Translations under genes and position numbers: made by a program | Notes under the pieces: model-generated | The model's input: the letters and a program-made list of their open reading frames with translations, nothing else | What the model was told of the DNA's origin: nothing | Database searches by the model: none | Shown: piece by piece, positions 3,552 through 35,611 of the stretch | Layout of the letters: the number at the start of each line of letters is the position of its first letter | Numbering within the stretch: the stretch's first letter is position 1 | NCBI GenBank assembly: GCA_016213405.1 | Contig: JACRAM010000006.1 | Location: 29,731-93,730 of the forward strand | Origin: Bacteroidota bacterium | GTDB lineage: Bacteria > Bacteroidota > Bacteroidia > Palsa-948 | Direction of reading: 5' to 3' | Length of the DNA stretch: 64,000 bases

Positions 3552-3577
3552 AGCCCATCCCCAACCCTTCCCGAAGA
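3552..3577. repeat. 26-bp GC-rich element AGCCCATCCCCAACCCTTCCCGAAGA (intergenic copy)
   Basis: 25/26 identical to 35472-35497 inside wzt; it lies in the porin-amt spacer within a larger G/C-rich structured tract. Confidence 0.85.
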
Positions 3578-3662
3578 CAACCATAGGTTGCGACCGCAGG
3601 TAGGAGCTTGAGGGCATATTGTTTTTCTCCTTCCCTTTGGGGAGGCAGGGAGGGGCTTTTTT

Positions 3663-4793
3663 TCAAAATGAAACTCCGAAATGAAATAAGATTTCCAAAC
3701 GGCTGTCTTCGTTTTCTTTCCAGCGGAAAATTTCCTGGTTGGCATCCATCTCTATTTGTCTTGCCTCCAGGCGAACATATGAATTGTCTGTGGGTTTGTA
3801 TTCAACGCCTGCGGTGACTCCCCACAATTTCAATCCGGTTTGTTTATTTTGTTTGTCAATAATAATTCCTCCCATGAATCCCTGCGGGTCATTAAAGATT
3901 TCTTCTCTTGTGTAAACTGCAAACTTTTTCTTCAGTTGATATTTCAATCCAAGCACTCCGCTAAACATGGTTGCGTTGTTCTTATTTAATGTGTCTCCGT
4001 TTTCCTGCATGCAGTAATCTCCTCCCAGTTGCATTTTAAGTTTTCCGAACTGGTAATTGAAAAATAAATTATTGTGAAAGCGCAGGTGCGAAATGCTGTC
4101 GGCAGCTGTTGGTGTGTCATCGCCAATGTAATTGCTGTAGCCGATGTTTCCTTTATCTCCAAGCGCATACGTGGCAAGCAACCCGAATGATTTCATGCTG
4201 TTGTTATCCTCATAGATATTATATCCGTTCAGCACATACGCATTAATGGAAAGTTCAGCAGTAGGATTATAATTCAAACGGAAGCCGCTTTCGTAATACG
4301 GTTCATAAAAAGTATTGACAGAAATAGAACTCGCAATGTTTTCTTTGGGAAGAAGCCCTTCTGTTCCGAAATGCGTTCTGAAAAATCCTGCATCGAACCA
4401 GAGCTTTTTGCATAGCCGGACGCCAACATGCGCTTCCATTATATTATTGTATGTGCCCGACCAGGAGCTTAGCGGAATATCGCCAAACTGAAGCGCAACA
4501 ATTCCCCGGATCTTTTCCGCGTCATATTGTGCCGTGAGCATTGCCGTGTTTAATCCAAATCCGCTTCGCGGACAAACGGAAGGGAACTTCTGGAAACTGC
4601 CATCGCCAACGCTGTCGGTATAATAAGCGTAATAAGCGTCAACATATCCGCTGATAATAATTTTAGCAGAATCTTTTTTTGTACTGACGGAATCTTTTTG
4701 CTGAGCGAAGGAAGTTTTACAAATAAAAAATCCTGCAAGGAGAGCAGGGAAAATCCATCTGAATAAAGAAAAATGTTTCATGGGGGAAAACAA
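3663..4793 (-). CDS. Putative outer-membrane porin (beta-barrel) encoded immediately upstream of amt
   Basis: N-terminal signal peptide (MKHFSLFRWIFPALLAGFFICKTSFAQQ). Alternating aromatic/hydrophilic beta-strand pattern ending in ...HFGVSF. Same strand as amt, 128-bp spacer. Confidence 0.5.
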   Translation of the reverse strand: MFSPMKHFSLFRWIFPALLAGFFICKTSFAQQKDSVSTKKDSAKIIISGYVDAYYAYYTDSVGDGSFQKFPSVCPRSGFGLNTAMLTAQYDAEKIRGIVALQFGDIPLSSWSGTYNNIMEAHVGVRLCKKLWFDAGFFRTHFGTEGLLPKENIASSISVNTFYEPYYESGFRLNYNPTAELSINAYVLNGYNIYEDNNSMKSFGLLATYALGDKGNIGYSNYIGDDTPTAADSISHLRFHNNLFFNYQFGKLKMQLGGDYCMQENGDTLNKNNATMFSGVLGLKYQLKKKFAVYTREEIFNDPQGFMGGIIIDKQNKQTGLKLWGVTAGVEYKPTDNSYVRLEARQIEMDANQEIFRWKENEDSRLEILFHFGVSF

Positions 4794-4931
4794 TTTTGTT
4801 TATGCAAACATAAATGAATTTGTTCGTTTAGCTGATCTATTAATAAAAAGATAGCCACATTGGTTTGTGGATAAACCCTGTAGGATAAAGATTTGCCCAA
4901 AGGGATACATCCGCCTGTTTCATGGAGGAAA

Positions 4932-5336: not shown

Positions 5337-5388
5337 TTTTAATTGTAAAAGTTATAACTCCAGTGGCTATAAAAGTACGGTAAGTTAA

Positions 5389-6195: not shown

Positions 6196-6225
6196 AACAT
6201 GTAATAGGGGAGAAGGCAGATGGAA

Positions 6226-6252
6226 ATGACTAATGACTAATGACCAATGACT
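6226..6252. repeat. Heptanucleotide tandem repeat (ATGACTA x ~4) at the 3' end of the M1 peptidase gene
   Basis: atgactaatgactaatgaccaatgact read directly. The minus-strand stop codon TAG of the peptidase lies inside the array. Confidence 0.9.
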
Positions 6253-10585: not shown

Positions 10586-10626
10586 TAATCAGAGGAATAA
10601 ATGAAAGATAAAAATAGGGAAAAGAT

Positions 10627-11499
10627 TCAGATGGCTGTTAAAGACATATCGAGACTCTTTACGCTATGAGTAAGTGCACCAACGGAAATATAGTCAGCGC
10701 CACAGGAGGCGTACCTACGAATATTTTTTTCATTTATTCCTCCTGAAATTTCGGTTTCAAACTTTCCATTGATGAGATGAAGAACCTTTTTGATTTCAGA
10801 AATTGAAAAATTATCAAGAAGAATCCTGTCAACACTTCCGATGGATATTATTTCTTTTACTTCTTTCTGGTTTCTCGCTTCAATTTCAATCTGAAGTTTT
10901 AATTTTTTCTTTTTGAGATAAGCATTTGCAGATTCAACTGCTTGTTTAATTCCTCCCGCGAAATCAATATGGTTGTTCTTAATGAGAATCATATCATACA
11001 ATCCGAAGCGGTGGTTATATCCTCCGCCAATTCTTACCGCCCATTTTTCCAGATCGCGGAGAAGAGGTGTTGTTTTTCGTGTATCAAGAAGTTTTACTTT
11101 ATATGGTTTGCAAAGAGTAATAAGTTTATTTGTCTGCGTTGCAATTCCGCTCATGCGTTGCATGCAATTGAGAACAAGTCGTTCTGCAGTGAGAATGGAA
11201 CGTGCGCTGCCTTCTACAATAAAAGCAATATCTCCCTTTTTGACTTTTGTTCCATCTGGCAGAAAAAATTTTATCCGCAGATTTTTATCGAAAGAAAGAA
11301 AGATTTTTTCAGCAAGAGAAACTCCTGCAATGATTCCATCGTCTTTAATAATGAGTTTTGATTTTCCTTTAGCATTCTCCGGAATGCAAGAAAGAGTAGT
11401 ATGGTCACCATTACCGATATCTTCTTTCAGTGATGAGAAAACAAATTGATGTAAGTCAAAATTATTTGAGAGAAGAGAGAAGGATTGAAAATTATTCAT
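10627..11499 (-). CDS. nadC: Nicotinate-nucleotide pyrophosphorylase (carboxylating), quinolinate phosphoribosyltransferase
   Basis: 290 aa with EDIGNGDHTT near the N-terminus and a TIM-barrel QPRTase C-terminal half. Confidence 0.85.
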   Translation of the reverse strand: MNNFQSFSLLSNNFDLHQFVFSSLKEDIGNGDHTTLSCIPENAKGKSKLIIKDDGIIAGVSLAEKIFLSFDKNLRIKFFLPDGTKVKKGDIAFIVEGSARSILTAERLVLNCMQRMSGIATQTNKLITLCKPYKVKLLDTRKTTPLLRDLEKWAVRIGGGYNHRFGLYDMILIKNNHIDFAGGIKQAVESANAYLKKKKLKLQIEIEARNQKEVKEIISIGSVDRILLDNFSISEIKKVLHLINGKFETEISGGINEKNIRRYASCGADYISVGALTHSVKSLDMSLTAI

Positions 11500-11890
11500 C
11501 CTGAACTTCGAATCGGAATTGCTGAATAGTTAAACCTGCGCCTTCTTTTTTGAAAAGAAAATAGGAACGGAATTTTTTTCCTGCTGTTGTTTCATAAGTT
11601 CCGATGGCAAACTGGTCACCACTTTTGGAAGTGCCTTTATGCATTACCGCAAATGATTTGATGGGGTTCTTTGAAAAAAAGTCCTTAAGAATCAGTTCTG
11701 CCTGCGCTTTACTGTAAATATCTTCCTTATCAAGAATTTTGAGGTCAACATTGGCAGAGAAAAATTTAGCCACACTTGCAGCGTTTCCTGTTTTAACGGC
11801 AGCAGCAACATCATCGGAGATATCCAAAACCGGTTCAGTTGGTGGCTGAATCAGTGTGAAAAACATCAGTATGGAGAGAAGTGTGTGCAT
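11492..11890 (-). CDS. Hypothetical secreted protein (Bacteroidota-restricted small DUF)
   Basis: 132 aa, N-terminal hydrophobic signal-like segment, no recognised catalytic motif. Confidence 0.4.
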   Translation of the reverse strand: MHTLLSILMFFTLIQPPTEPVLDISDDVAAAVKTGNAASVAKFFSANVDLKILDKEDIYSKAQAELILKDFFSKNPIKSFAVMHKGTSKSGDQFAIGTYETTAGKKFRSYFLFKKEGAGLTIQQFRFEVQDE

Positions 11891-11987
11891 ATATTCGTTT
11901 TCAGATTAAATACAATTATCAAGCCAAAGTGAATGTTATTTTTGCCATGGAACAAATTTATACTTTTTTAGCCCCCGAAAACCAACC

Positions 11988-14919: not shown

Positions 14920-16316
14920 TTCTTTGTCATTGAATAAAGAATTCTGCCTGAATTTTTCAGAGCAAAAGTCTCATTAATAGAAAAATAATTTCCAAATGCA
15001 GCTATAAAATTCCCGTTGGTGTAATCATTAAAAATATTTTCCCTTCCTGAAATCATTTGCTGAACCATTGCATCGTCTTTTGGAATAAATTCTATTATTA
15101 ATTCTTCTGTAAGCTCTGAAAAATATCTTGCTATTATGGAAAACGGAATATTATTTCCTATGCGAATGTGATGAGTCAATGCCAAGGCAAGAACTGTATC
15201 CGCTTTTCCCCGCTGTGCAATGTTTCTGCGTTCAGCATTTGCCCAGCCGATGGAAGGGGAGGGGTTTGATAAATCAATAACAAGTGGAAGAATATTATTT
15301 GTGGCTGAGTTTTTTAATGCAGTATAAAAGTTTTCTATGCAATAGTGGTCAGCATCCATTGATAAAATATAATTGCAGTGTTTGGAGGCAATCAACGAAA
15401 ATTTGCCTATGTTGCATCCTAAATCCCATAAGGTTTCAGGTTTTAATTTTTCAAGCCAGCTCGTAACGATTTGTTCTTTTAAATGCAGCACTTCTTCCGA
15501 ATAAGTATTTTCTACTTCGTATTTTATCCAGTTACTATTTACTTTTTTTATTTTAAGAGTACGGATACTGTCTTCCATGTGTTGAATCATTAGAAGTAGT
15601 TTGGATTTAGGGAGAACAGTTTTTTTATTTTTAATTGTATTTATTCTGGAATATTTTTTTTGAATTTTTGAGTGGAAGATGATGTGAGCAGCAATTCCGC
15701 TGTTCAGATAGGATGTTGAAGGCAAGAGGGACGAAGCAAGTTCAAGAGGAATACCGTCAATATAGTTAAGAAGTAGTTTTGAGAGTTCTGCGGATTTATA
15801 GCTCATCAAAGCAAGTGGCGCCAGAAAATGCTGGCAGAATTGCCTGTATGCATTCCACGGTTTTCCTTCATCATATTTTTCAAAAGAGAGCGTGTCAATG
15901 AAAATCGGTTTTCCTCCTACGAATTGTACGTTATAGGCAGAAGCATCTTTTAATGTCATCCCATGTTTCAGCGCTTCTTTCTGAACTTTAAGAGTGAGTA
16001 ATGCAGCGTCTTGCAGCTGGCTAAAGCACCATTCGTAGGGATAAGAGATAAATGGAATTTGTTCCGGCTTAATTACTTTATATGCTGTATATTCCTTTGT
16101 CAAGAAATTTTCTATTTCAGAATGTTTAACAACAAACTTCTTTGATGAAAGAGATTGATACAATCCTGAATTAATAAGAAGAGAAAAATTTTCAAAATAG
16201 GAAGGAGCTATTGCCCTGTAAATCTCGTTTTCAAATGTAAATGTAAAGCCGGATGGGTCCCGGAAAGAACCCGGTTCAATCTCAACAGAAGATATATCTT
16301 GGCTGAGCACAGACAT
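14916..16316 (-). CDS. Two-domain protein: N-terminal protein-kinase-like fold + C-terminal class I SAM-dependent methyltransferase (WbdD-like candidate polysaccharide chain terminator)
   Basis: N-terminal half has LKDASAYNVQF...GKPIFIDTLSFE resembling the kinase catalytic loop (D..xxN) and DFG-like ID motif. The C-terminal half has DLGCNIGKFS (methyltransferase motif I). It sits in an ABC-transporter-dependent locus. Confidence 0.5.
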   Translation of the reverse strand: MSVLSQDISSVEIEPGSFRDPSGFTFTFENEIYRAIAPSYFENFSLLINSGLYQSLSSKKFVVKHSEIENFLTKEYTAYKVIKPEQIPFISYPYEWCFSQLQDAALLTLKVQKEALKHGMTLKDASAYNVQFVGGKPIFIDTLSFEKYDEGKPWNAYRQFCQHFLAPLALMSYKSAELSKLLLNYIDGIPLELASSLLPSTSYLNSGIAAHIIFHSKIQKKYSRINTIKNKKTVLPKSKLLLMIQHMEDSIRTLKIKKVNSNWIKYEVENTYSEEVLHLKEQIVTSWLEKLKPETLWDLGCNIGKFSLIASKHCNYILSMDADHYCIENFYTALKNSATNNILPLVIDLSNPSPSIGWANAERRNIAQRGKADTVLALALTHHIRIGNNIPFSIIARYFSELTEELIIEFIPKDDAMVQQMISGRENIFNDYTNGNFIAAFGNYFSINETFALKNSGRILYSMTKK

Positions 16317-24322: not shown

Positions 24323-25048
24323 TCATTTCTTTCGGGCAACAATGATATTATTGATGAAAATATCCTTATTAACCGGTAAAATAAAGGAGAAGAATAGTTC
24401 AACAAGGGTTAAGGGGAAAATAATAAGTAGAGTAAAAAAGAATTTAATGAGTTTTATATTGGGCATTGCTGTAAATAAATAATCATTGAATAATTGTGCT
24501 ACTACCAGCAAGTAGTTGCCTTTTTTTTCCTGAACAATAATTTCAAATCCATTTTTTTTCAATAAATATTTAATTCCAAAAGAAGTATAGCGTACGCTGT
24601 CATTGGGCTTTTCATTTTCCTTCCATACAAAAGGAACGGTAAGTAAAAAACAGCCATTCTTTTTGAGTACCCGGTTTAATTCAGGAATTATTTCTTCCAC
24701 ATTAAAAATATGGGTCAACGCCTCGGAACTAAATAGTGAATCAAAATATTCATCATCGAAAGGAATCTTTTTTCCATCATAAAATTTATCAACAAAAGAA
24801 ATATCATTGTTGTGTGCAGAGTTCTTTATTTCAACCCCTATATGATGTTTTACATTAAACAGTGAATGATATGGTTTCGTCCCGCATCCAAAGTCAAGCA
24901 TCGTCCCTACCATATAGTGTGCATTTTTTTTAATACCTGATGATATGCCTCTTGAGATGATATAATTAGAATTAATTACAATAGAATACCATGCGGGAAT
25001 AAAAACCTGCCTACGATAATATTTTTTTAATGAATCTATCAGCTTCAT
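24323..25048 (-). CDS. Class I SAM-dependent methyltransferase
   Basis: LDFGCGTKPY motif I; 241 aa with a C-terminal hydrophobic tail. Confidence 0.6.
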   Translation of the reverse strand: MKLIDSLKKYYRRQVFIPAWYSIVINSNYIISRGISSGIKKNAHYMVGTMLDFGCGTKPYHSLFNVKHHIGVEIKNSAHNNDISFVDKFYDGKKIPFDDEYFDSLFSSEALTHIFNVEEIIPELNRVLKKNGCFLLTVPFVWKENEKPNDSVRYTSFGIKYLLKKNGFEIIVQEKKGNYLLVVAQLFNDYLFTAMPNIKLIKFFFTLLIIFPLTLVELFFSFILPVNKDIFINNIIVARKK

Positions 25049-25075
25049 ATTATTTTAAAAGTAAGCATTTAGAAT

Positions 25076-26065
25076 TTAGCCATCATAATCTATAGGGAGC
25101 AAGTTCCAGTTTTTTATATCGGTAATGAAATTCGAAGGGGATACATTGATATTCTCAAAAACTGAAAAGTAAAAGGGATAAGTCATAATGCCTTTATTAA
25201 AAGGATTTTTCATAAAGAGCCGTTGTTTTAATAATTTAGAAAAAAATGAATTTTTATTTGACCAGCAATAAATTCCTTTTAATTTATTATTAATAGTTAT
25301 TTGATATATTTTATTAAACAACATTGAATAAGCATCATTTTCTAATGAATAGATATCTTTAATTAATAGAAGTAAATTTTTTTCAATACAATAAATGCAA
25401 TATCCCACTAGCGTTTCATTTTTGTAACAATAAATGATTCTATGCGAAGCAGAAGGATCTTTGAAACGCCATTCTAAATAAGATTTGTCCCTTGCTTTCG
25501 CAATAGGAAATTGCATAGAAATTACTTTATCCAAATCATTTATTGCTTCGCTGATGATATCTGTATCGGTAAAATGAAATAGTGGATTCGATGGAATTAT
25601 TTTACTTAATAGAATTTCAATTTTTAATTGTAAAGATATTTTAAAATGAGGCTTGATTCTTCCCAATCCTTTCCAATGAAGTTTTTTAATGTAACCCGAG
25701 TAGGGAATTTCTCCGGGAAACACCTTAGCAAGTGATTTGCCTTGTCTTTTCAATTCGTCACATGTCAGTGCAGCTAATTTTTCAAAGATGCCCATTCTTC
25801 TATAGTTTGGGTGTGTCATTGTATCGCAGGCAAGATACATGACATTTTTTTTTCCATTAATATAATATGCATCCGGTATTGCACCCCAATATCCGACTAA
25901 TTCGCCCTCTTCATTTTTTGCAACATATCCAATCACATTGCCTTCGGAGTTTTCATAATATTTCCAATGATAAAAATCTATTGTTGAGGCTCTGCCAAAA
26001 CATAATAAGGTTAATGCTGGCATTTCTTTTAAATCTGCTTGCGAAAATTTATGAAAGGATAGCAT
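25076..26065 (-). CDS. GNAT-family acyl/acetyltransferase-like protein
   Basis: 329 aa; ...NYRRMGIFEKLAALTCDELKRQGKSL... resembles the acyl-CoA binding R-x-x-G-x-G/A segment of GNAT folds. Confidence 0.4.
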   Translation of the reverse strand: MLSFHKFSQADLKEMPALTLLCFGRASTIDFYHWKYYENSEGNVIGYVAKNEEGELVGYWGAIPDAYYINGKKNVMYLACDTMTHPNYRRMGIFEKLAALTCDELKRQGKSLAKVFPGEIPYSGYIKKLHWKGLGRIKPHFKISLQLKIEILLSKIIPSNPLFHFTDTDIISEAINDLDKVISMQFPIAKARDKSYLEWRFKDPSASHRIIYCYKNETLVGYCIYCIEKNLLLLIKDIYSLENDAYSMLFNKIYQITINNKLKGIYCWSNKNSFFSKLLKQRLFMKNPFNKGIMTYPFYFSVFENINVSPSNFITDIKNWNLLPIDYDG

Positions 26066-26086
26066 GAATTTTAAAACGATTGTATT

Positions 26087-27067
26087 CTATTTGCGAATAA
26101 ATTTGTGAAATCCGTTTATTCTGAAAAATAGTTCATATGGATTTTTGTCATGCACATTAAATCTTGGGATTGCATATTTATAAGGAGTATCGTTCACTTT
26201 TTTTAAATCCACTAATTCATTATTTACTGCAAAACCTGCTTTATAGTATTTTAGAACAAGATGCAAAACTCTGCCGGAATAATTTCCTGCCGGATAAGCA
26301 ATGTAATCAACATTGTTTTCTAGTTTGGCAGTGAGTAGATTTTTAGACTCATACAGTTCATAATCAAGTGTTGCCTCGTCTTCTATCATTGACAATGCCG
26401 GATGAGTCATTGAGTGAGACTCATATTTTACATCAGCCAATGTTTCTTTTATTTCTGACCAGGACATACTATTGGCATTCGTGTCATCCTTGTATCCCAA
26501 AGTTTGCATAATAGTTGAGACATATATTCTGCGCTGCTTATCCGGTAAGCGTATTAAAAGTTTCCTGACTGCAAATGCTGCTTTACTTCTTTGCTTTTCG
26601 CTTTCAAGTTTTAAAAATATTTGTTCATTATTGATGTTTAAACATAATTCAGTTTTGTTTGTGAATTTGAAGCAATTGTCTAATTGAGATGTCCAGATAA
26701 TCTGATTTTTATTTACGCAATCAACCGGAACAAACATAGTGACCGGAACCTGATGTTTCTTTATTATGGGAAGAGCATGTTCATGGAAATCTTTAAATGC
26801 ATCGTCAAATACTACAGCGCAGCAATCACGCAACTGTTCTTTTTTTTTATCGAATAAATTATTAAGAGAAATAAAGCGATATTTTTTTGATAAGAACTTT
26901 ATGTGAGATTCAAATTGTTTTGGTGTAAGTGGGGACCAGAATCCATCGGGATAAGGACTAATTCTGTGAAAAATTAAAATTGGAATTCTTAAATTCATTC
27001 TATGATAATGCATTAATAAGTACCCCAATCCTGTATAATATAAAATTTTAAAAATAATGTTTCTCAT
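26087..27067 (-). CDS. Polysaccharide deacetylase (CE4, NodB-homology domain)
   Basis: VVFDDAFKD (TFDDG-like motif 1) and HSMTHP (H-S/T-x-x-H-P motif 2). Confidence 0.7.
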   Translation of the reverse strand: MRNIIFKILYYTGLGYLLMHYHRMNLRIPILIFHRISPYPDGFWSPLTPKQFESHIKFLSKKYRFISLNNLFDKKKEQLRDCCAVVFDDAFKDFHEHALPIIKKHQVPVTMFVPVDCVNKNQIIWTSQLDNCFKFTNKTELCLNINNEQIFLKLESEKQRSKAAFAVRKLLIRLPDKQRRIYVSTIMQTLGYKDDTNANSMSWSEIKETLADVKYESHSMTHPALSMIEDEATLDYELYESKNLLTAKLENNVDYIAYPAGNYSGRVLHLVLKYYKAGFAVNNELVDLKKVNDTPYKYAIPRFNVHDKNPYELFFRINGFHKFIRK

Positions 27068-27094
27068 ATTTTATAGAACTGCACTACATTTTTT

Positions 27095-27997
27095 TTATTT
27101 TAACTTCCTGATAATGTTGTTTCCAATTAATATTTTGAAAAATAAAATAATCAAATTAATATTAATACCAATTTTAGCAGTTGTTTTAATAAGGTATTTA
27201 ATTGCATAAATTCTATTTTCATCTATATAATTATGAATAGCGCAAAAGTAGAATGAATAGCCCTCCACTATCCTAATCTGTTTGTTGCTTAATGGCAGGT
27301 TTTGTTTGATCCATTCTACAGCCAAAAGTTTTTTTGAAATAATATCCTGGTTATTTCCCCTCATGGTTCTTTCATCGTGATCATTGAGTGTGATGGTTAT
27401 TTTATCAGCAATATAAATCTTTTCTTTCATAAGATTTTGCATGAGAAACATCCAATCTTCTACCACAGTATATTTGCTATCCTCGTTAAAAAGATGAAGT
27501 TCTGAATTGTTTTTTTTGATGCAAAAGGATATGGCAAGCGGATTCCCCTTTAAAAGCAGTTCTATTCCATGCCATCCTTCTTTAACTCCTGCAAGCGATG
27601 AGGGATAAAATATTTTATTATTTCTTTTAATGTTATATTTTGTGGCAAGAAAATTTATTTCAGGATTAGTTTTTATAATAGAAAACAAGGTGCTTAAATG
27701 GTCTGGATGCATGGTATCATCCGAATCAAGAAAAGTAAGAAACGCGCCTTTTGCATTTTTGATTCCGGTATTTCGTGAAACAGCGCGTTCATAATTTTTA
27801 TCATGTTGAATAAATATTATTTTTCCTGAATCATGCAGGGGTTTTAATATTTCAGCAGTAGTATCCGTTGAGCAATTGTCAACTACAATAACTTCATAAT
27901 CAGGATAAGTTTGTGAGAAAACACTATCAAGTGTTTTTAAGATTAAAGAACTCCTGTTATAAGTAGGAATTATTATACTAAAAAATGGTTTATTCAT
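27095..27997 (-). CDS. Glycosyltransferase family 2
   Basis: FSIIIPTYNRSS...YEVIVVDNCSTD...DSDD; canonical GT-A/GT2 N-terminus. Confidence 0.85.
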   Translation of the reverse strand: MNKPFFSIIIPTYNRSSLILKTLDSVFSQTYPDYEVIVVDNCSTDTTAEILKPLHDSGKIIFIQHDKNYERAVSRNTGIKNAKGAFLTFLDSDDTMHPDHLSTLFSIIKTNPEINFLATKYNIKRNNKIFYPSSLAGVKEGWHGIELLLKGNPLAISFCIKKNNSELHLFNEDSKYTVVEDWMFLMQNLMKEKIYIADKITITLNDHDERTMRGNNQDIISKKLLAVEWIKQNLPLSNKQIRIVEGYSFYFCAIHNYIDENRIYAIKYLIKTTAKIGININLIILFFKILIGNNIIRKLK

Positions 27998-28045
27998 TAT
28001 AAAGATTTTCTAAGTCATATACCAGATAAATTAGCCAGAAAGTCT

Positions 28046-29170
28046 TTAATAATGCTTCTTTCTATTCAGCATTCGATAAACTTTGTATATAAATTCAAGT
28101 TTTTTCTTATCGTTGGGATAGTCCTTGTATGTTTTTGGAGGCAACATCATCATTGCATCAAACTCATCAATGGTTATTCCCAGTTTTTTACATATATATT
28201 CTTTTTCTTTGGCTACATTGCCCGGGTCATAGGGTTTTTTAGCCAGTTCCAGCAAAGCTTCCTCACGCGTGATTGTACCATCGCATATCTTTGAGGAAAA
28301 TGTTACCAGACGATAATCTATTTGAAATTTTTCAGGTAAAATATATGATTGCACAAATCCTGTGAATGTTGATTCATGATGTTTTTTACCATAATATTTC
28401 CATCCAAAATTTTGTTCAAGAATTTTTATTGCATCTTTTTTGCTGTAAGGGAAATAATTCAGCAAATAGATAATTCGTATGCCCTTTACATATTTGTAAT
28501 ATATTTCACTTAAAGCGTTAAATGCGGGTAAGGTTTTCAATTTTTTGTTACCAAATTTTTTGTAAATGGCTTTTACATACTTCAGGTCTTTGGCATTATA
28601 ATGCCAGCTTTTTGGAAGAATTCCTTCTGTGGCATAGTTGCCCCCGCTGATTATGTATTTAATATTATACGTTGCGGCAACTTTATGCAACACTTCATAA
28701 ATTGCAATATCAGTGGGAGTTTCTATTTCAGGCACTGATGCTTTGAAAAATGCTAACTGGATGTTTTTAAATTCTTCCCAGTCCAGAATGTAATTTTGAT
28801 AGTTGAAACCTAATAATTCAATAACTTGTTTTATGTTATTAACTGATATTTCTGAATCCCAGCCGTTATCCATGTGTACAGCCAACACCCGTAACCCAAA
28901 GGTTTTGGAAATATAGGCAGCGTAACAACTGTCAACTCCTCCGCTGATTCCCAACACGCAATCGTACTCCTTATTTTTGCCTGATTGTTTGATCGTATCA
29001 ACAAGTTGAGGCAGTAGGTTATTGTTGTTTTCTGTTTTATAGGGCAAACTGGAAATATTTTTATAATTTTCCTTGCAATGATTGCAATAACCGTTTTCAT
29101 CAAATACAATTTCAGTATCTGATGTGTCCATCACACACCTGGTGCATTGCTGATATTTTCTGGCATCCAT
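28046..29170 (-). CDS. N-acetyl sugar amidotransferase (WbpG-like, PP-loop ATP pyrophosphatase)
   Basis: N-terminal Cys-rich CTRCVMDTSD...CNHC, then LGISGGVDSCY (SGGxDS PP-loop); 374 aa. Confidence 0.7.
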   Translation of the reverse strand: MDARKYQQCTRCVMDTSDTEIVFDENGYCNHCKENYKNISSLPYKTENNNNLLPQLVDTIKQSGKNKEYDCVLGISGGVDSCYAAYISKTFGLRVLAVHMDNGWDSEISVNNIKQVIELLGFNYQNYILDWEEFKNIQLAFFKASVPEIETPTDIAIYEVLHKVAATYNIKYIISGGNYATEGILPKSWHYNAKDLKYVKAIYKKFGNKKLKTLPAFNALSEIYYKYVKGIRIIYLLNYFPYSKKDAIKILEQNFGWKYYGKKHHESTFTGFVQSYILPEKFQIDYRLVTFSSKICDGTITREEALLELAKKPYDPGNVAKEKEYICKKLGITIDEFDAMMMLPPKTYKDYPNDKKKLEFIYKVYRMLNRKKHY

Positions 29171-29395
29171 TTGGACAAAAATACTTTAATTCTTTCCCCG
29201 ATGATAACTATCGGGGCAGGTTTCTGAAATTAAAAATTCCTCTCAGCCTGTTCCTAATTAACGGAATGTATAAGAATTTGGTATTTTGATGTTTAAAAAC
29301 AATTTGGTATTAGTTTTTATTTTGCATTGCATTGCGGATTAATGTTACAAACATAGTATCATTATTTCTGTTATTGAATTTAAACCCTGCTTCGG

Positions 29396-29434
29396 CTAAG
29401 TAGGAATAATGATGCTAAAAAAGGGATTATTCAT
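29396..29434 (-). pseudogene. Relic of a GT2 gene 5' end (MNNPFFSIIIPT-stop) duplicated from the 27997 start region
   Basis: 29397-29441 is about 89% identical to 27961-28004, which holds the real GT2 start MNKPFFSIIIPTYN. The copy reads ATG AAT AAT CCC TTT TTT AGC ATC ATT ATT CCT ACT TAG on the minus strand. Confidence 0.6.
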
Positions 29435-30539
29435 TATAAAGCTTTTCCAGATCATTTATCATTCGTTCCAGATTAAATTTCTGAACAAATTGTTTTCCAT
29501 TGAGAGCGATTGTATTTGCCAAATCTTTATCAGATTGCAGACGAATCATTTCCTTATAAATTTCGTTTGAGTTTTTAAAATTAACCACAAGTGCATTTTT
29601 TTCATGTTCGATGAATTCGCAAGCAATTCCTGATAATGTAAAAACAGAAGGCACTCCTGCCGCCAATGCTTCAATGTAGGTTTGACCGAATGCTTCGCAT
29701 AATGAATCAATGGGAGTATGTATATAAATGTCGAACAGCTTATATAAAGCAGCCACATCTTCTTCAAATGGAATAATTCTATAATTTGACTCAGGAATAG
29801 TTTCCAACTGCTGTACTATTTGATTATGGTAGGGTCCATAAGCATTGGCTAATATCAATGTGGCATCAGGATATTTTTTTAAAAAATCTTTAAACGCTGG
29901 AATAATATATTGTATGCCTTTCCATTCAATGTAGCGGGCAATAACACCAATTCGTGGATGGTTGTCCGGAATATTCCATTTTAGCTTTATCTTGTTACTG
30001 TTTTTTATATCAATTGAATCAAAATGCCTGAGGTCAAACCCATGATAAATAGTTCGGATTTTTTCAGGGTTAACATTTTCAAATTCAACTAATGTTTTGT
30101 AAGTTGCCTGGCTGATAGAAATAATATGTGTAGCCATTTTATTGCACCATAAATCATATTTCACTCCTTTTGGAAAATACCGACGATGGTAGGTACTGTC
30201 GTGGCGGGTGTAAATTCTTTTTTTTATCCCACATAATCTCCCGGCAGTTAATGCAATTAAGTTCGCATCAAAAACATGCGTGTGAATAATGTCAGGTTTT
30301 AATTTGAGAAAGAACCAGAAAACTTTAATAAAGGCAGTAACAATATTTTGTTTTCCATTATAATAAATCCGTATAACATTTATTTTATTCTTAGTGAGGA
30401 AATCTTCAAATGAAGAATTCTCAATATTCAATAATAATACTGTCAATTCATATTTTTTTTTTAATTCTGATAAAGTCCACTCTAATCCAAGTGATTTATT
30501 GACATGAGAAATGATATAAATAATATGTTGTTTCGGCAT
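29427..30539 (-). CDS. Glycosyltransferase family 1 (GT4-type)
   Basis: 370 aa GT-B protein with ...EAFGQTYIEALAAGVPSV... (EX7E-like). Confidence 0.65.
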   Translation of the reverse strand: MPKQHIIYIISHVNKSLGLEWTLSELKKKYELTVLLLNIENSSFEDFLTKNKINVIRIYYNGKQNIVTAFIKVFWFFLKLKPDIIHTHVFDANLIALTAGRLCGIKKRIYTRHDSTYHRRYFPKGVKYDLWCNKMATHIISISQATYKTLVEFENVNPEKIRTIYHGFDLRHFDSIDIKNSNKIKLKWNIPDNHPRIGVIARYIEWKGIQYIIPAFKDFLKKYPDATLILANAYGPYHNQIVQQLETIPESNYRIIPFEEDVAALYKLFDIYIHTPIDSLCEAFGQTYIEALAAGVPSVFTLSGIACEFIEHEKNALVVNFKNSNEIYKEMIRLQSDKDLANTIALNGKQFVQKFNLERMINDLEKLYNE

Positions 30540-30542
30540 GAA

Positions 30543-31406
30543 TTATCGGGCTATAATATCATAGTGGCAATTAGTGAAATCAGTATCAACTGAAACTGCC
30601 ATTCCGGATTCAGCGTTGGTAATAGTGCGGTATTGCAAACTGGAGAGAAAGGCAATTAATGCTTTTACGGAGTCACCCTGAACATTGAGATTGTTTTCAT
30701 CGACTTCAATGAATAATACGGGTTTGAATTTTTTTAACAGCTGTTCTGCTCCTTTAAGCACTTTTAATTCATAACCTTCCACATCAATTTTAATAAGATT
30801 TACTTGAGGGAAATGATTAATCTGTTCAATATCATCCAATCTTCTTATTTCTACAGTTTCATTTGCATTTTTTTTTTCAACTGCGATTCGATTTCCTCCT
30901 CGATTTGATGCAGCGCGCACTTCTATCTGCGCTTGTTGAGGAATTTCTCCCAGTCCGTACGGCAAAAGAGTAACATTTGTCATCTTGTTTAATTCAATAT
31001 TTTTTTTGCACTGAATGAAATTATACGGATCCGGCTCAAAGCCAATAACCCTTCCTGTTTTGCTTAATCGTCCAAGGTTAAGCACTGTCCAGCCAATGTT
31101 TGCACCTACATCAATCACATAATAGCCCTCTTTACATAAATTAAAAAGCTGTGAAGATTCATTTTTAAAAGCAAAATAATACAGATAGCCCATCCAGTCA
31201 CTTATGTCAATATGCATAGTAATATCGTCTCTTGTAATTTTACGCCATGAAGGATGTTGGTATTGATAATAATTTGGCGCAAGTTTACACCAGAAATTAG
31301 TTGAGGGATTTCCCTTGGTTTTGCTCACAAGGAATCTTTCTAACGATGGTATTTTAAAAACATTTCTGAATAAATTTAATAAACGAGTTTTTGCTGGCAA
31401 TTCCAT
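30543..31406 (-). CDS. FkbM-family methyltransferase
   Basis: YVIDVGANIGWTVLNL motif typical of FkbM methyltransferases; 287 aa. Confidence 0.7.
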   Translation of the reverse strand: MELPAKTRLLNLFRNVFKIPSLERFLVSKTKGNPSTNFWCKLAPNYYQYQHPSWRKITRDDITMHIDISDWMGYLYYFAFKNESSQLFNLCKEGYYVIDVGANIGWTVLNLGRLSKTGRVIGFEPDPYNFIQCKKNIELNKMTNVTLLPYGLGEIPQQAQIEVRAASNRGGNRIAVEKKNANETVEIRRLDDIEQINHFPQVNLIKIDVEGYELKVLKGAEQLLKKFKPVLFIEVDENNLNVQGDSVKALIAFLSSLQYRTITNAESGMAVSVDTDFTNCHYDIIAR

Positions 31407-31408
31407 TT

Positions 31409-32329
31409 TTATTTTTTATTATATCCTTCAAAGATACTCACTGCCTGCAATGTTAATACCAACCGAAAATAAATTTTATTCGCCCATCTCGCATTGGGAA
31501 TTGATTTGACTAACAACATTAATAATGGCTTTATCCGAATAAAGAATCTTAAAACAAATTTCTTGAAAGCGGGATATGTAATTGCTAATTCTGAATAACC
31601 GATTTTTACCCCATGCTTTCTTGTTGCAGCTACTTCCTTCTGTTTTTTCAGCCATAATTCTATACTGTCAACTTTGTCAGCCTCATTGTGGTAAACCAAT
31701 ATTCTTGTATCAATCAAAAACCTCATTCCCATTTTATTTAACCGAACGGGGAAATCATAATCTTCAAAACCGCTATGCTGAAAACTCTCATTGTATCCGC
31801 CCGATTTTAAAAACGAATCTTTATCCATAGACAGATGAAAACTTGCTATCATCAGTGATTCAAATAGAGCATTGTTCTTCCAACGTGGATTTTTATACCA
31901 TCCCTTAAAATTTGTGAGGTTGTGTTTCAGCAAATACCTGCCAAAAGAGTATTCATCTAAATGGGCAGTTAGTTCCGGTGGATAAATCCAGTCAGGATTA
32001 ACACAAATATTTTTTTCTTGCCTGTGAACGGAGAGGGTTTGCTCAATTGTTTTAGTGCTGATAAGAATATCATCATCAAGAAATAACAACAAATCCGATT
32101 TTGCGATAGCTGCACCAGCATTTCGTGCGGAAGCCACACCGGATTTAACATTATCAATTAATATAATCGGTGCATTTATCCATTTTTCTATTTCAGGATG
32201 CGAGGTTTTAGAATCATTAACAACAATTATTTCAGCGTGTATATGCTTTATTGCGTTTACTGAATGTTCTAATGTTTTATAAAAAATATTTCCTCTTTCT
32301 TTGGTGGGTATGATGATGCTTAAATCCAT
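31409..32329 (-). CDS. Glycosyltransferase family 2
   Basis: MDLSIIIPTKERGN...EIIVVNDSKTS...LDDD. Confidence 0.75.
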   Translation of the reverse strand: MDLSIIIPTKERGNIFYKTLEHSVNAIKHIHAEIIVVNDSKTSHPEIEKWINAPIILIDNVKSGVASARNAGAAIAKSDLLLFLDDDILISTKTIEQTLSVHRQEKNICVNPDWIYPPELTAHLDEYSFGRYLLKHNLTNFKGWYKNPRWKNNALFESLMIASFHLSMDKDSFLKSGGYNESFQHSGFEDYDFPVRLNKMGMRFLIDTRILVYHNEADKVDSIELWLKKQKEVAATRKHGVKIGYSELAITYPAFKKFVLRFFIRIKPLLMLLVKSIPNARWANKIYFRLVLTLQAVSIFEGYNKK

Positions 32330-32383
32330 TTGCTATTTATTTCATAGAATAGTGTTCGCCAATATGGTAATTCCGTTTACAGA

Positions 32384-34354
32384 TTATTTCAAAAGAAAAA
32401 ACCGTTCACCTGTTTTTTCATCTCTTATTTCTCTTTTAATTTCATGTTCAAGGAGGGAGTCAAGGATTACATCTTTGGTAGTAATCAGGTAATTAATTTT
32501 ATACTCATGAATAAAATCCAAACGACTTAGATTTATATTTTTAAATTTTTCACTTGCTTTTTGTTTTTCGACATACTGGTAAAAAGGAGAACCTTTCAAA
32601 CTTTGTTCTTCCAAAGCCAATTGCCTTTTTTCTTTTGAAAATGGATAATCGTTAACAGAAATGCTTATAGGGAAAGTACGAGATTCAGTATAAGCCAAAT
32701 AATTTCCGATGGTTGTCATGACGGGAATATAACCAAAATCTGTATTTCGATAATATTCTTTGTCAAGCATGAATGCACCGTGTGAAGATAAATCCGGTGC
32801 TATTTTATTAATTTCTTTTAAAAAAATTATTGATCGTGTCTGTCGAAAGACCTCATGGGTATAAGTATAAAAAATACTTTGCAGCAAAGTGCTGAATATA
32901 ACAAAGGTGCCTATGTAAAACACCCCTTTATTATTAGGATTCTTTATAAAAAGAAAAAAAATACATGCAGCTATGCTGATTAAATTAAACATCGAAACTG
33001 AAATGTAAATAAATATAGTGACAGCAAAACCAGGCAGCGGATTCATGAAAGCCCACCCTAATAGAGAAAAAATCACTATCAGAGGAACAAATAGAATAAA
33101 AATATTATTTTCTATAAATATTTTAATTTTAAATCTGGTCAATAAGAATATAGTTATCATGATTGCTGGAAAATAAACCAAAAAAAGTTGAATGGTTGTT
33201 TTGCCTATGATGTTTATTATAGTTCTGAGATTGGATGAATCTATAATAGCCGGAATTAAATCTTTCAAGCTTGTAGGAACAACAGTAGGAGTATTTTCTC
33301 CAAATGTTTTATAAAATAGCCAGATGTAAATAACTAGTAATATAGCAGCAGCAGTTATATAGACATAAAAATCATTTGCATCCTTTTTATTCGATTTGTT
33401 TTTAGCAAAAATAAAGTAATGAAAAATTGGAAAAGAAAGAACAGAACACAGTATCCCGATTGAAGTAGTTATGTTTGCAACAGGCAAGCACAATAATGAA
33501 AGAACAGCGAGTTTATATTTATTATTAAGAAAGAGAAGTAGGGCACTCAAGAGGAAGATGTAAATAGGAAATAGTTTACAGTAGTTGAAAATATTTGCAG
33601 AAAACAATTCCGATGACTTTAAAAAATCTGCTTCCGAGAAAAATCCGAACCAAATCCCAGATAAGAACAAGAAAAAAAAGCATGCTGTTTTGTGATAGAT
33701 ATTTATTTTTTTAAAAAATGAAAATAATGCGACCAAACCAAACCATAGAATTACTGTTGCTGATGAATAGCTTACCAATACAAGGCATAATAATGGATTA
33801 ACATTGAAGAAACATAAACCGACATTAAGCCAAAGATCAAAAAAATGGTAGGGACTAACACCCATTTCATTAGCATAAATGAAGTTTAGAGAAGCATTTT
33901 CTTGACCGGTTTTAACTAAAAAATTTGAAAGATGAGCATATATTGTATAATCAATATGCGACACGATAGGAATTCCGCTAGAATTGTAAATGAAATAAAA
34001 TCTTAGTGCAAAAATCAATAATGAAATAATTCCTACTTCCGCGAATAAGCGCGGATAAGATGGTCTTTCAGAATCGCAAGCTGTTATATATTCTCTTTTG
34101 TTTTTGAAATAATCTATTAAAAAAAATAATGCTATTATAAAAAATCCACATTGAAGAGTTTTAAACTTTGTATAGTAGAGTGAAGTAATAATAACAAAAA
34201 CAATCATTCCTGAAAATAATTTTGTGAATGTATCCGTAGAAGAATATAGAATTTTTATTTTTAATAAATAGAGTAAGCCGTTTCCAATTAAATAGAATAG
34301 TAAAAGAACTAATAAAAGAAAAATGTAATAGTTGATAAAAATTGTTAGCATCAC
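32384..34354 (-). CDS. Large polytopic membrane protein (at least 12 TM) with C-terminal soluble domain; possible GT-C-fold glycosyltransferase/polymerase
   Basis: 656 aa, very hydrophobic N-terminal 470 aa, about 180-aa hydrophilic C-terminal domain; locus context only. Confidence 0.3.
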   Translation of the reverse strand: MMLTIFINYYIFLLLVLLLFYLIGNGLLYLLKIKILYSSTDTFTKLFSGMIVFVIITSLYYTKFKTLQCGFFIIALFFLIDYFKNKREYITACDSERPSYPRLFAEVGIISLLIFALRFYFIYNSSGIPIVSHIDYTIYAHLSNFLVKTGQENASLNFIYANEMGVSPYHFFDLWLNVGLCFFNVNPLLCLVLVSYSSATVILWFGLVALFSFFKKINIYHKTACFFFLFLSGIWFGFFSEADFLKSSELFSANIFNYCKLFPIYIFLLSALLLFLNNKYKLAVLSLLCLPVANITTSIGILCSVLSFPIFHYFIFAKNKSNKKDANDFYVYITAAAILLVIYIWLFYKTFGENTPTVVPTSLKDLIPAIIDSSNLRTIINIIGKTTIQLFLVYFPAIMITIFLLTRFKIKIFIENNIFILFVPLIVIFSLLGWAFMNPLPGFAVTIFIYISVSMFNLISIAACIFFLFIKNPNNKGVFYIGTFVIFSTLLQSIFYTYTHEVFRQTRSIIFLKEINKIAPDLSSHGAFMLDKEYYRNTDFGYIPVMTTIGNYLAYTESRTFPISISVNDYPFSKEKRQLALEEQSLKGSPFYQYVEKQKASEKFKNINLSRLDFIHEYKINYLITTKDVILDSLLEHEIKREIRDEKTGERFFLLK

Positions 34355-34363
34355 TTGTTGGAA

Positions 34364-35611
34364 TTAGTATTCTATTTTCCAATTTATATCGCTGATAAAA
34401 AATTTGTTGAATCGTTTGTCAGGTAATTCACCTGAGGGAGCAAACTTTATCGGGTCAACTGTTAACTGGAAACATTCGCGATATACTTCTAAATCTTTAT
34501 AGGCATTACCAAAATGCATATCAATATAATAAGTTCCTTCAAATAAAGTTAGGCAAGGAATGGACATTGAAATGCATCCGCTGGTCAAAGATATGGCTGC
34601 GATGTTGCCCGAGTAATGTTTGTTGTTTATTCCTAACAAGGGCGTGTTTTGATTGTCTTTAAAAATCAGACCCAATACAGGAAACTCTAATGAAAAAGAG
34701 GATTTAAAATGCACTTTGATTTCAAGACGACAACCCATGTATGCAGTTCCTGATAACTTTCCGTCACAAAATATCTCAATCTTTTTTATGATGCCGCTAA
34801 CGTTATCTTTAGCAGGCATAATGATTCCGGCATGCTGTGTGGATGCTGCTGCCAATACGGTTTGGTAATGATAGATCACATCTGTTGAAGAGCCATTTTT
34901 TGCTATTTCACCTTCATGTAAAAGAATGGATTTAGCGCAAAGATTTTCAACTGCTGCCATATTATGACTCACAAACAATACCGTCTTCCCTTCTTTCTTC
35001 GTAACATCATCCATTTTCCCTAAACATTTTCTCTGAAACTCTGCATCACCTACCGCCAGCACTTCATCAATCAATAAAATTTCCGGCTCAAGAAATGCGG
35101 CAACAGCAAATGCCAGCCGCAACTGCATCCCGCTTGAATAATGTTTCAATGGAGTATCCAGAAATTTTTCCACTCCGCTGAAATCAACAATCTCATCAAA
35201 CTTGTTTTGAATTTCTTTCCGATTCATACCGAGAATGGAGCCATTCAAAAAAACATTTTCTCTTCCTGTCAGTTCGGGATGAAACCCTGTTCCGACTTCC
35301 AGTAAACTTGCGATTCTTCCTCTTGAAATAATTTTTCCTTCGGTGGGAGGAGTTATCTTTGAAAGAATTTTCAGAAGAGTGGATTTTCCTGCTCCGTTCT
35401 TGCCGATGATTCCAATTGATTCTCCGGGATAAACATTGAAGGAAATATCCTTCAGCGCCCAGAAGTCTTCAAGCCCATCCCCATCCCTTCCCGAAGAGAA
35501 GGGAGATTTAAAAAAACTTGTAACACTATCCCGTAAACTTAAATAGGGTTGCTGTTCGTGTTGGATACGAAATTTTTTGGATATATTTTTTATTTCAAGA
35601 ATGGGTAGCAT
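34364..35611 (-). CDS. wzt: Polysaccharide ABC exporter ATP-binding protein (Wzt/TagH-like) with C-terminal carbohydrate-binding-type extension
   Basis: GKNGAGKSTLLK (Walker A), LSGGMQ-like YSSGMQLRLAFA signature, LLIDEVLAVGD Walker B, plus about 170-aa extra C-terminal domain. It carries an in-frame 26-bp repeat element near the N-terminus. Confidence 0.8.
   Translation of the reverse strand: MLPILEIKNISKKFRIQHEQQPYLSLRDSVTSFFKSPFSSGRDGDGLEDFWALKDISFNVYPGESIGIIGKNGAGKSTLLKILSKITPPTEGKIISRGRIASLLEVGTGFHPELTGRENVFLNGSILGMNRKEIQNKFDEIVDFSGVEKFLDTPLKHYSSGMQLRLAFAVAAFLEPEILLIDEVLAVGDAEFQRKCLGKMDDVTKKEGKTVLFVSHNMAAVENLCAKSILLHEGEIAKNGSSTDVIYHYQTVLAAASTQHAGIIMPAKDNVSGIIKKIEIFCDGKLSGTAYMGCRLEIKVHFKSSFSLEFPVLGLIFKDNQNTPLLGINNKHYSGNIAAISLTSGCISMSIPCLTLFEGTYYIDMHFGNAYKDLEVYRECFQLTVDPIKFAPSGELPDKRFNKFFISDINWKIEY
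35472..35505. repeat. Same 26-bp element plus GAGAAGGGA arm, inserted in frame in wzt
   Basis: agcccatccccatcccttcccgaagagaaggga forms a CCCTTC/GAAGGG hairpin; minus-strand translation is SSGRDGDGL within the Wzt N-terminus. Confidence 0.85.

Follow-up and report, generated by a model that had tools for sequence, protein, structure and literature searches.

A GC-rich sequence of 26 bp occurs twice in a 64,000-nt stretch of a Bacteroidota genome (GCA_016213405.1, contig JACRAM010000006.1, positions 29,731 to 93,730 of the forward strand), once between genes and once in frame inside wzt, the gene for a polysaccharide ABC-transporter ATPase. The whole stretch, which has ~37% G+C, is called the window hereafter, and all coordinates refer to it. 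What kind of element can stand both in a spacer and within a coding sequence, and from where it might derive, is the question raised by this locus. Our answer, to which we give a probability of roughly 0.72, is that the window repeats belong to a family of short triplex-type repeats and are non-autonomous remnants of small cassettes carrying a DUF559 domain, comprising solo ends and a doublet that resembles a miniature inverted-repeat transposable element (MITE).

The repeat pair and the family behind it

The two 26-mers are located as follows:

3552-3577, + strand, first copy of the 26-mer, AGCCCATCCCCAACCCTTCCCGAAGA
35472-35497, + strand, second copy of the 26-mer, AGCCCATCCCCATCCCTTCCCGAAGA

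They are identical at 25 of 26 positions, as had been noticed in a sequence-only reading of this DNA. When up to three mismatches are allowed, these are the two matches in the window, compared with none in 100 dinucleotide-preserving shuffles, and a repeat search stretches the pair to 29 nt at 93% identity (repeat family D15). The wzt copy runs on as GAGAAGGGAG to 35505, and the hairpin that had been proposed for this extension is borne out by the fold energies of both strands (-6.4 and -5.7 kcal/mol, z about -2.7). An independent Logan assembly (SRR12113407, contig 31) differs from window 24364-41291, the wzt copy included, by one mismatch in 16,928 nt.

A 34-nt repeat dispersed in Bacteroidota contains the 26-mer as its outer two-thirds. 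A collection of one genome per species (596 Gb) was scanned with the 23-mer core CCCATCCCCANCCCTTCCCGAAG, and exact matches were found in 60 genome stretches where ~0.07 would be expected (22 specified bases, uniform composition); a longer 30-mer pattern gave 46 further stretches in metagenomes. The 60 stretches come mostly from Flavobacteriia, Chitinophagia and Bacteroidia, and a few from metagenome-assembled genomes (MAGs) labelled Ignavibacteria, Chloroflexota or Saccharibacteria, for which binning errors are possible. Nearly all aligned 23-mer matches continue identically with GGAAGGGAG, and their flanks are unrelated. By position counts, the conserved part begins with A[G/T], two bases upstream of the core, and ends with AG, two bases downstream of the continued match, which defines a unit of 34 nt, A[G/T]-CCCATCCC-CAN-CCCTTCCC-GAA-GGGAAGGG-AG, hereafter type A. 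The unit consists of an 8-nt tail, a 3-nt linker and an 8-bp homopyrimidine/homopurine hairpin with a GAA/TTC loop, enclosed by 2-nt ends.

The final base of the 26-mer (the A after GAAG) lies outside the family consensus GAAGG. That the two window copies share it is a weak sign of a sister relationship, the probability of chance agreement being about 0.25-0.3. A variant ending in GAAGA has no match in metagenome contigs, and the truncated 26-mer is therefore not a propagating unit by itself. Likewise, the 23-mer has no match in viral contigs, and so gives no evidence of phage carriage. No Rfam family matches any part of the window at gathering thresholds, and none matches 3300-3900 at E <= 1.

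In two Chloroflexota MAGs (L004 and L047), 27-28 nt of unrelated sequence replaces the GAA loop and parts the tail and pyrimidine arm from the purine arm; either an insertion into the loop or a separate long-loop variant may be responsible. In Gillisia (L056, L057, L009 and L019), type-A units lie inside tandem arrays of a composite unit with a second family variant, the type-A copies being 135 and 221 nt apart, and these arrays resemble the mosaics of bacterial interspersed mosaic elements (BIMEs).

A tail that mirrors the hairpin arm

The window contains four family members, here called copies a to d. They and the genes next to or around copies a, b and c are:

2311..3534, - strand, open reading frame (ORF) of amt (ammonium transporter)
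3552..3577, + strand, copy a, truncated type-A unit: AG + tail CCCATCCC (3554-3561) + CAA + pyrimidine arm CCCTTCCC (3565-3572) + GAA + GA
3627..3657, + strand, copy b, in opposite (G) orientation: CT + CCTTCCC (3629-3635) + TTT + GGGGAGG + CAG + mirror tail GGAGGGG (3649-3655) + CT
3552..3657, no strand assigned, inverted doublet of copies a and b, 106 nt, tails outward, spacer about 49 nt, between the porin-like gene and amt
3663..4793, - strand, porin-like ORF
34364..35611, - strand, wzt, with ABC_tran and Wzt_C domains, a Wzt-type polysaccharide ABC-transporter ATPase
35472..35505, - strand, copy c, full 34-nt type-A unit inside wzt: CT-CCCTTCTC-TTC-GGGAAGGG-ATG-GGGATGGG-CT, the G-rich strand being the mRNA sense
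60420..60452, - strand, copy d, a perfect copy of another variant, reading on the + strand AG-CCCCTCCT-AA-TCCTCCCC-GAA-GGGGAGGA-CT

Many other GC-rich hairpins with a pyrimidine-only 5' arm, a loop of 3-5 nt and a C-rich tail (G-rich on the other strand) were found in the fetched loci. The tail is the mirror image of the hairpin arm, placed about three bases off, as can be read from copy d at 60422-60450 (CCCCTCCT-AA-TCCTCCCC-GAA-GGGGAGGA). Among 26 distinct variants whose arm is not its own mirror, tail and mirrored arm match at 0.938 of positions, against 0.815 when the tail is read as a direct repeat and 0.804 +/- 0.020 when tails are permuted among variants; none of 2000 permutations reached 0.938. 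Judged by sequence comparison, the tail covaries with the stem as a mirror copy across the variants of the family.

The bases of this third block also follow a pattern. On the G-rich strand, the base facing an A of the purine arm is A in 128 cases, T in 91, G in 5 and C in none, thus A or T in 219/224. In established nucleic-acid chemistry, the antiparallel purine-motif triple helix calls for G facing G and for A or T facing A, and a share of 41% T opposite A would break the alternative pyrimidine-motif triplex on the C-rich strand. Since the tail mirrors the hairpin arm, the three blocks on the G-rich strand fit an intrastrand purine-motif triple helix, and such a triplex may form in vivo.

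A scan of the window for the three blocks with at most one mismatch returned 3629-3655, 35475-35503 and 60423-60450, and nothing in 30 shuffles; together with the truncated copy a these make up the four members. Copies b, c and d thus possess every part of the triplex motif (pyrimidine stem, purine stem and mirrored purine block, with loops of 1-6 nt), and the third block tracks the stem from variant to variant; copy a lacks the purine stem. Wobble pairs in the stems of the family (10 T.G vs 4 C.A) are too few to conclude a strand-specific bias.

Individually, the window members differ in state and setting. Copy a is intergenic, lying past the porin-like ORF and 17 nt ahead of the amt start codon (ATG at 3534, minus strand); where canonical copies continue with GGGAAGGGAG, its purine arm is missing, and no hairpin is therefore possible (fold 0 kcal/mol). 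Copy b has one T.G wobble in its stem and, on the minus strand, begins 5 nt past the porin-like stop codon. In the RNA fold of the doublet the outer tails of a and b pair with each other, and the fold of the doublet in the amt leader is not significant against shuffles (z = -1.3). Copy c has a single stem mismatch, a T.G wobble on the G-rich strand. Copy d, with a hairpin of -8.2 and -8.3 kcal/mol on its two strands, lies between two minus-strand DNA methyltransferase-like genes with its G strand as mRNA sense, and its tail AGGAGGGGCT, which contains AGGAGG, stops 9 nt upstream of the ATG at 60411. In our reading, the porin-amt spacer contains a decayed doublet made up of a and b, c is a solo of the right-end type, and d is a solo between the methyltransferase genes.

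The sequence-only reading had also linked the 26-mer to a family of hairpins with GAA loops. This link is correct for copy d at 60420-60452; the palindrome at 47645-47667 (perfect over 10 bp, GTTCGACCCC-GAA-GGGGTCGAAT) has a mixed-base arm and no tail, and was rejected as a member. An isolated G-rich tract at 15244-15265 (GATGGAAGGGGAGGGGT) looks like a tail and purine arm with no pyrimidine arm, possibly a further element in decay. The methyltransferase-like pair spans 59553-61971 (minus strand), the upstream gene has an N-terminal RadC-like region, and copy d alone stands between the two genes.

Type A contains four G tracts (GGGAAGGGNTGGGGATGGG) and so fits the motif of a G-quadruplex (four runs of at least three G, loops of 1-7 nt) as well. 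This motif is not a trait of the family, as the middle of copies b and d, like that of most variants, contains GG runs only. Nevertheless, the mirror rule is possibly not the sole constraint on type A, and in CTCCCTTCCCTTCGGGAAGGGTTGGGGATGGGCT triplex and G-quadruplex may be alternative folds.

Translated copies, doublets and DUF559 cassettes

Whatever bases fill the two variable positions, the 34-mer can be read through in all six frames without meeting a stop codon. Many copies of the genome set lie within or at the ends of long ORFs. In the metagenome set, 41 copies have adequate flanks, and here the element is crossed by 22 open frames that are 200 codons or longer and extend 50 codons or more to either side. 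Two of the reading frames prevail, PSP[AT]LPEGKG with the C-rich strand as sense and PFPSGR[VA]GDG with the G-rich strand as sense, and the in-ORF copies show no bias in orientation (36 G-sense vs 33 C-sense). In the C orientation, the element starts 0-5 nt past the stop codon of a same-strand upstream ORF in about 20/64 cases, and in related flavobacterial loci it supplies C-terminal residues, ..VIPSPALPEGKGE. The flanks at orthologous sites are 64-74% identical around the element. Conservation of the element over its flanks was considered as evidence of selection and rejected, because the loci had been retrieved by exact match.

These positions could suggest a signal selected by the host, for instance a terminator or stabiliser of mRNA 3' ends, a regulator of translation, or a regulatory triplex or G-quadruplex, in which case the amt and wzt copies would be functional. 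Such a signal would agree with the placement just after stop codons in the C orientation, with copies a and d, whose G strand is in the mRNA, preceding start codons by 17 and 9 nt, with the four G tracts of type A, and with a structure kept through covariation. Yet the neighbouring genes are functionally unrelated (amt, wzt, methyltransferases, tRNA synthetases, RibD, MetH), many copies are in coding sequence in either orientation, copy a is unable to fold, other variants lack four G3 tracts, no Rfam match exists, and the motifs of E. coli are without promoter or terminator activity. We therefore regard a host signal as unlikely.

An arrangement in pairs was examined by setting each type-A copy with its C-rich tail to the left and seeking a G-oriented partner within 160 nt. 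A partner 3' of the purine arm, that is, with both tails outward, was found for 22/62 copies, and the other configurations occurred 3, 3 and 4 times; the bias is repeated in the metagenome set (18/41 vs 1, 1 and 1). The favoured layout is consequently an inverted pair with tails outward, which copies a and b match exactly.

The very long ORFs that hold type-A copies deep inside encode housekeeping enzymes. In four of these hosts, namely IleRS (L006 and L033), MetH (L013) and LeuRS (L042), the element is one end of a larger in-frame insertion with a DUF559 domain, which matches PF04480 at E 1e-32 to 1e-35 and has as its closest solved structure 3HRL, an 'endonuclease-like protein'. The layout of such a cassette is host coding sequence, a 34-nt element with its tail outward, 15-40 nt, ~360 nt of DUF559 in the host frame, an inverted element with its tail outward, and host coding sequence again in frame. 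The DUF559 frame has no start or stop of its own, and the second element is of the same or another variant. Residues for protein splicing (Cys/Ser at the N-end; His-Asn and Cys/Ser/Thr at the C-end) are absent from the cassette junctions (..RN/GPSPAL.. with ..GGAS/RKI.., and ..YPF/SLSQTL.. with ..GDGL/DGLY.., the slash marking the junction), so that the mature protein would retain the insert.

The IleRS and MetH sites are also occupied in the database proteins P0156, P0175 and P0195, which are MetH or IleRS fragments interrupted there. The cassettes of IleRS, MetH and LeuRS, and those of RibD described below, are in frame, at conserved sites of essential genes and reused between lineages, as are inteins and homing elements; the window copies do not have this combination. 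In Flavobacterium covae, MetH carries two DUF559 insertions. DUF559 inserts of this in-frame kind, with inverted elements on both sides, were further catalogued in L092 and L093 and in the proteins P0265, P0284, P0296 and P0312. Stand-alone proteins of 117-150 aa make up most of the domain's database homologs, and many of them begin or end with element-encoded peptides. At the DNA level, each of three stand-alone DUF559 genes has a C-oriented family member to its left and a G-oriented one to its right; two of these genes lie between korA and korB. In loci L064-L069, from different Bacteroidaceae-like contigs, the spacer between 2-oxoacid:ferredoxin oxidoreductase alpha and beta genes holds one or the other of two DUF559 genes, which have 53-61% identity to the query domain and are both element-bracketed.

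RibD provides an allelic series at a single site. The RibD of locus L050 carries a solo type-A copy (AHPQPFPKGRE), and the 120 best homologs, 58-72% identical, vary between KWAQT.NGKIA and RL.ISNE.TNR.VHKWRSEE. At this site, 32 sequences are shortest and appear empty, about 50 have solos of several variants adding +10 to +16 aa, 11 are longer by about +42 aa with an element peptide at each end, and 4 have gained +150 to +190 aa including DUF559. The doublets and the full cassettes have a common subterminal motif, (H/N)TQP(S/L)L, after the left element. The DNA of one cassette, one doublet and one solo shows the same host start position and recognisable end elements, some of them decayed. As MITEs share terminal inverted repeats with a longer coding element, so the doublets and the cassettes share the tail-outward layout and the same RibD site. 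Most simply, the RibD doublets and solos would have arisen from the cassette by internal deletion, in the way that transposons give rise to MITEs; the opposite order, in which a nuclease gene entered a pre-existing doublet, is possible too.

How copy c sits in Wzt is to be seen against this series. It encodes S36-L47 (SPFSSGRDGDGL, 12 residues), which is the PFPSGR[VA]GDG frame with two substitutions, in the reading ..FFK-SPFSSGRDGDGL-EDFWAL.. The peptide belongs to a variable linker that joins LSLRD to EDFWAL, with the Walker A motif GKNGAGKST following about 25 residues further on, and the in-frame translation ahead of Walker A, as proposed earlier, was confirmed with SPFSSGRDGDGL as its reading. 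The same proposal spoke of an insertion of 9 aa, which was examined in the 120 best of 8000 homologs (the window protein and 119 others). None of the 119 other Wzt homologs, the nearest 70% identical, carries the element peptide, and the linker from LR[DE] to EDFWAL has a mode of 13 residues, compared with 19 in the window protein and in one other, P0036; hence the residues are not native to the orthologs. It is not a clean insertion, however: 12 residues are encoded, the window protein has a net gain of only ~4-6 residues over most orthologs, and P0036 is of equal length, which indicates that part of the native linker was replaced. The wzt copy probably came by insertion or conversion replacing ~15-27 nt of native linker. 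The linker of P0036 was considered as a decayed copy; its DNA shares only AAATC.CC.TTC (KSPF), shows no resemblance past the first 9 nt and is otherwise unrelated, which leans against this.

In an AlphaFold2 model of Wzt with a mean predicted local distance difference test score (pLDDT) of 86, residues 35-46 are coil between a helix (26-34) and a strand (47-60), and residues 39-43 are the only stretch with pLDDT below 50. The model fits a tolerated disordered loop formed by the element residues.

Wzt is also where a trivial origin of the repeat would be easiest to defend, that is, coincidence, native low-complexity coding sequence, or an assembly artefact or chimera, as the length of the linker is naturally variable and P0036 reaches the same length with a linker that begins KSPF. 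Such an origin is hardly credible in view of the other data: no chance match is expected in the scan, 60 + 46 exact copies stand in unrelated contexts, the peptide is absent from the 119 homologs, the P0036 DNA is dissimilar past its first 9 nt, and the independent assembly is identical across the wzt site.

The surroundings of wzt have features of their own. Between an AAA_14/DUF4143 ATPase gene and the wzt start, window 35615-35682 is GC-rich and repeat-like (..CCCTTCGACTTCTCCCTCGACTCCGCTCGGGATGACATTGCTCAGGGTGACA..), with two GTCA[TC]CC[CT]GAGC half-sites on the minus strand, and is not of the three-block type. The AAA_14/DUF4143 gene (35684-36892, minus strand) lies between wzm (36983..37834) and wzt; wzm and wzt are adjacent in the locus of P0036 (L062) and split by this gene in the window, which suggests a second insertion in the operon. 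Elsewhere in the window, an AT-rich 65-nt direct repeat (27960-28024 and 29397-29461, 83% identical, 1437 nt apart) and an AT-rich 35-nt inverted repeat (55421-55504, 14-nt spacer, 80% complementary) are unrelated to the element.

Origin of the repeats and their place among known systems

If the window copies are remnants of DUF559 cassettes, the following steps may be envisaged. The DUF559 nuclease would break target sites or element ends, and repair would copy the cassette; internal deletion would then leave doublets and solos, and the G-rich strand would fold into a triplex when single-stranded. Persistence within genes would be favoured by the lack of stops in any frame, by flexible peptides rich in Pro, Gly and Ser, with CCN and GGN codons giving Pro/Gly-rich linkers, and by tolerant loops at the receiving sites. 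A more general proposal, which we advance tentatively and at somewhat less than even odds, is that the triplex-type repeats are the terminal inverted repeats of an undescribed selfish cassette of ~450-500 nt, which has a DUF559 frame lacking a start and stop of its own, enters essential genes such as IleRS, LeuRS, MetH and RibD in frame at conserved positions, is translated without splicing, and decays to doublets and 34-nt solos.

Several observations weigh against the cassette origin. The 64-kb window contains no DUF559 gene, and only about 5% of type-A copies adjoin one, so that the link to cassettes rests on other genomes; moreover, DUF559 is a nuclease fold and not a known transposase. 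No direct repeat indicative of a target-site duplication is evident at the window copies or at the RibD junctions, for which close empty-site DNA is lacking for comparison; without such a duplication and a close empty/filled pair, insertion boundaries and mobility are not demonstrated. In Wzt, the 12 encoded residues exceed the net gain of ~4-6, and the equally long native linker of P0036 starts with the same KSPF. The fit of type A to the G-quadruplex motif makes room for a constraint besides the mirror rule. Finally, TM_ECO, the triplex motif of E. coli, forms a stable triplex on single-stranded DNA in vitro with none evident in vivo, and has no promoter or terminator activity (PMC4666352).

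The elements might instead be classical repetitive extragenic palindromic (REP) sequences, mobilised by a REP-associated tyrosine transposase (RAYT, an IS200/IS605-like Y1 transposase) that recognises a hairpin and its tail on single-stranded DNA. Much in their appearance would agree with this: a short imperfect palindrome of high GC content with conserved flanking sequence, frequent inverted pairs, and elements that often abut or supply stop codons, as reported for GTAG REPs. Intragenic REPs are known, and a C-GAA-G loop favours stable hairpins of single-stranded DNA. Nonetheless, neither end has a conserved GTAG or CGTC (the GTAG overlapping copy a at 3550-3553 is not in other copies), and mirror covariation of the tail with the stem is not required by REP/RAYT recognition. 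REPs are usually species-specific, whereas identical sequence is found here across Bacteroidota classes, and the gene between inverted copies is DUF559 and not a Y1 transposase, although RAYT genes were not searched for in the source genome. A REP origin is accordingly quite improbable. The REP- or MITE-like interpretation given in the sequence-only reading is thus supported in kind, as the element is a dispersed small unit tolerated in frame; what does not hold is REP in the strict sense, since the tag is lacking and the tail is a mirror.

The comparison with described REP, BIME and REPIN systems and their RAYTs (Di Nocera et al. 2013, PMC3733652; Bertels and Rainey 2011, PMC3116915) leads to the same division. 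Short GC-rich palindromes, inverted doublets, proximity to stop codons and occasional in-gene copies are common to both, whereas the Bacteroidota element lacks the GTAG/CGTC tag, has a mirror tail, and is accompanied by a PD-(D/E)XK nuclease instead of a Y1 transposase.

In structure, the E. coli repeats named PIT, TM_ECO or BoxC and the G/C-rich triplex motifs of cyanobacteria are like the Bacteroidota element, with a C-rich stem, a loop of 3-6 nt, a G-rich stem, a 3-nt loop and a mirroring G-rich block (class II purine motif). An earlier account of intrastrand triplex motifs was reportedly given by Hoyne et al. in 2000 and followed by that of Holder et al. in 2015. In the latter (PMC4666352), such motifs were catalogued in 5246 prokaryotic genomes, and TM_ECO was equated with PIT and BoxC. 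E. coli K-12 has 23 near-identical copies, all intergenic, with five inverted pairs of two variants; no link to mobile elements was found, and the copies are associated with local genome variability (PMC4666352). A length of 30-37 nt, near-identical scattered copies, frequent inverted pairs of two variants and a function that is not known are features of the E. coli and Bacteroidota repeats alike. In sequence, they differ: the Bacteroidota element does not match the TM_ECO consensus CCCTCNCCC-N3-6-GGGNGAGGG-N3-GGGNGAGGG, and its blocks CCCTTCCC / GGGAAGGG / GGGATGGG stand in place of CCCTCNCCC / GGGNGAGGG, the stem being of another sequence. In addition, the E. coli copies are reported to be always intergenic and without a link to mobile elements, whereas Bacteroidota copies are often translated in frame and some flank DUF559.

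In-frame insertion of palindromes has a precedent in the Rickettsia palindromic elements (RPEs) and other in-frame MITEs (PMC10969869), which are likewise non-autonomous, occur in unrelated housekeeping genes and are translated as extra segments. RPEs differ in being about 100-150 bp long (34 nt for the Bacteroidota solos and about 80-130 nt for the doublets), alphaproteobacterial, of unrelated sequence, and without a known full form that carries a nuclease. For the nuclease, the closest parallels are the Vsr-like (EDxHD) enzymes such as I-Bth0305I, which are known homing endonucleases (PMC3239194, PMC2677866) and were placed with DUF559 in the same PD-(D/E)XK clade (PMC3424549). Elements of this homing or intein type also put a nuclease of Vsr/DUF559 fold into conserved sites of essential genes that are reused in different lineages; they differ in that the cassettes have no intron or intein context, no splicing residues, and triplex-type inverted repeats at their ends.

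In E. coli K-12, a canonical TM_ECO/BoxC lies about 170 nt downstream of the DUF559 gene ycjD (L073, NC_000913.3 1351039-1351760; locus 11040-11761) and is the sole one in the surrounding 20 kb. The 3' end of ycjD has a hairpin of the same style followed by a degenerate duplicate of the 3' end, and decayed copies of the motif lie between ycjD and TM_ECO. This proximity is a single instance and serves as a lead only. The stretch of ycjD and the motif is kept in 3346/5426 E. coli genomes, and the others have a different island with no clean empty site, which makes the comparison uninformative. In about 38% of E. coli genomes, homology breaks ~50 nt from TM_ECO near ycjD.

The kind of repeat and the in-frame insertion of palindromes are already known, the latter from the Rickettsia RPEs (PMC10969869). 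The literature on DUF559, in-frame homing elements and ycjD/BoxC, with subscription journals outside its scope, gave no earlier description of the cassette; the Bacteroidota family, the comparative evidence for the third strand, and the bracketing of in-frame DUF559 cassettes appear to be undescribed in the searchable literature.

For the window itself, the effect is probably small, amounting to a disordered loop of 12 residues in Wzt and, in the amt leader, a doublet that has decayed. More generally, these 34-nt units are an issue for annotation, since they give rise to numerous spurious small ORFs, to C-terminal extensions and to what look like indels in conserved proteins, and the examples here prove that housekeeping proteins routinely contain such repeats in translated form, as loops rich in Pro and Gly. 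Catalogues of bacterial intrastrand triplex repeats date back to 2000 and came with no explanation of where these repeats originate, what they do or how they spread; a third strand covarying with the stem is comparative evidence that the three-block structure is maintained. Should the cassette origin be true beyond Bacteroidota, the BoxC / PIT / TM_ECO repeats of E. coli would descend from this system as relics. A candidate partner protein of the triplex repeats is DUF559, a domain that is very common and of unknown function, which makes the question experimentally approachable.

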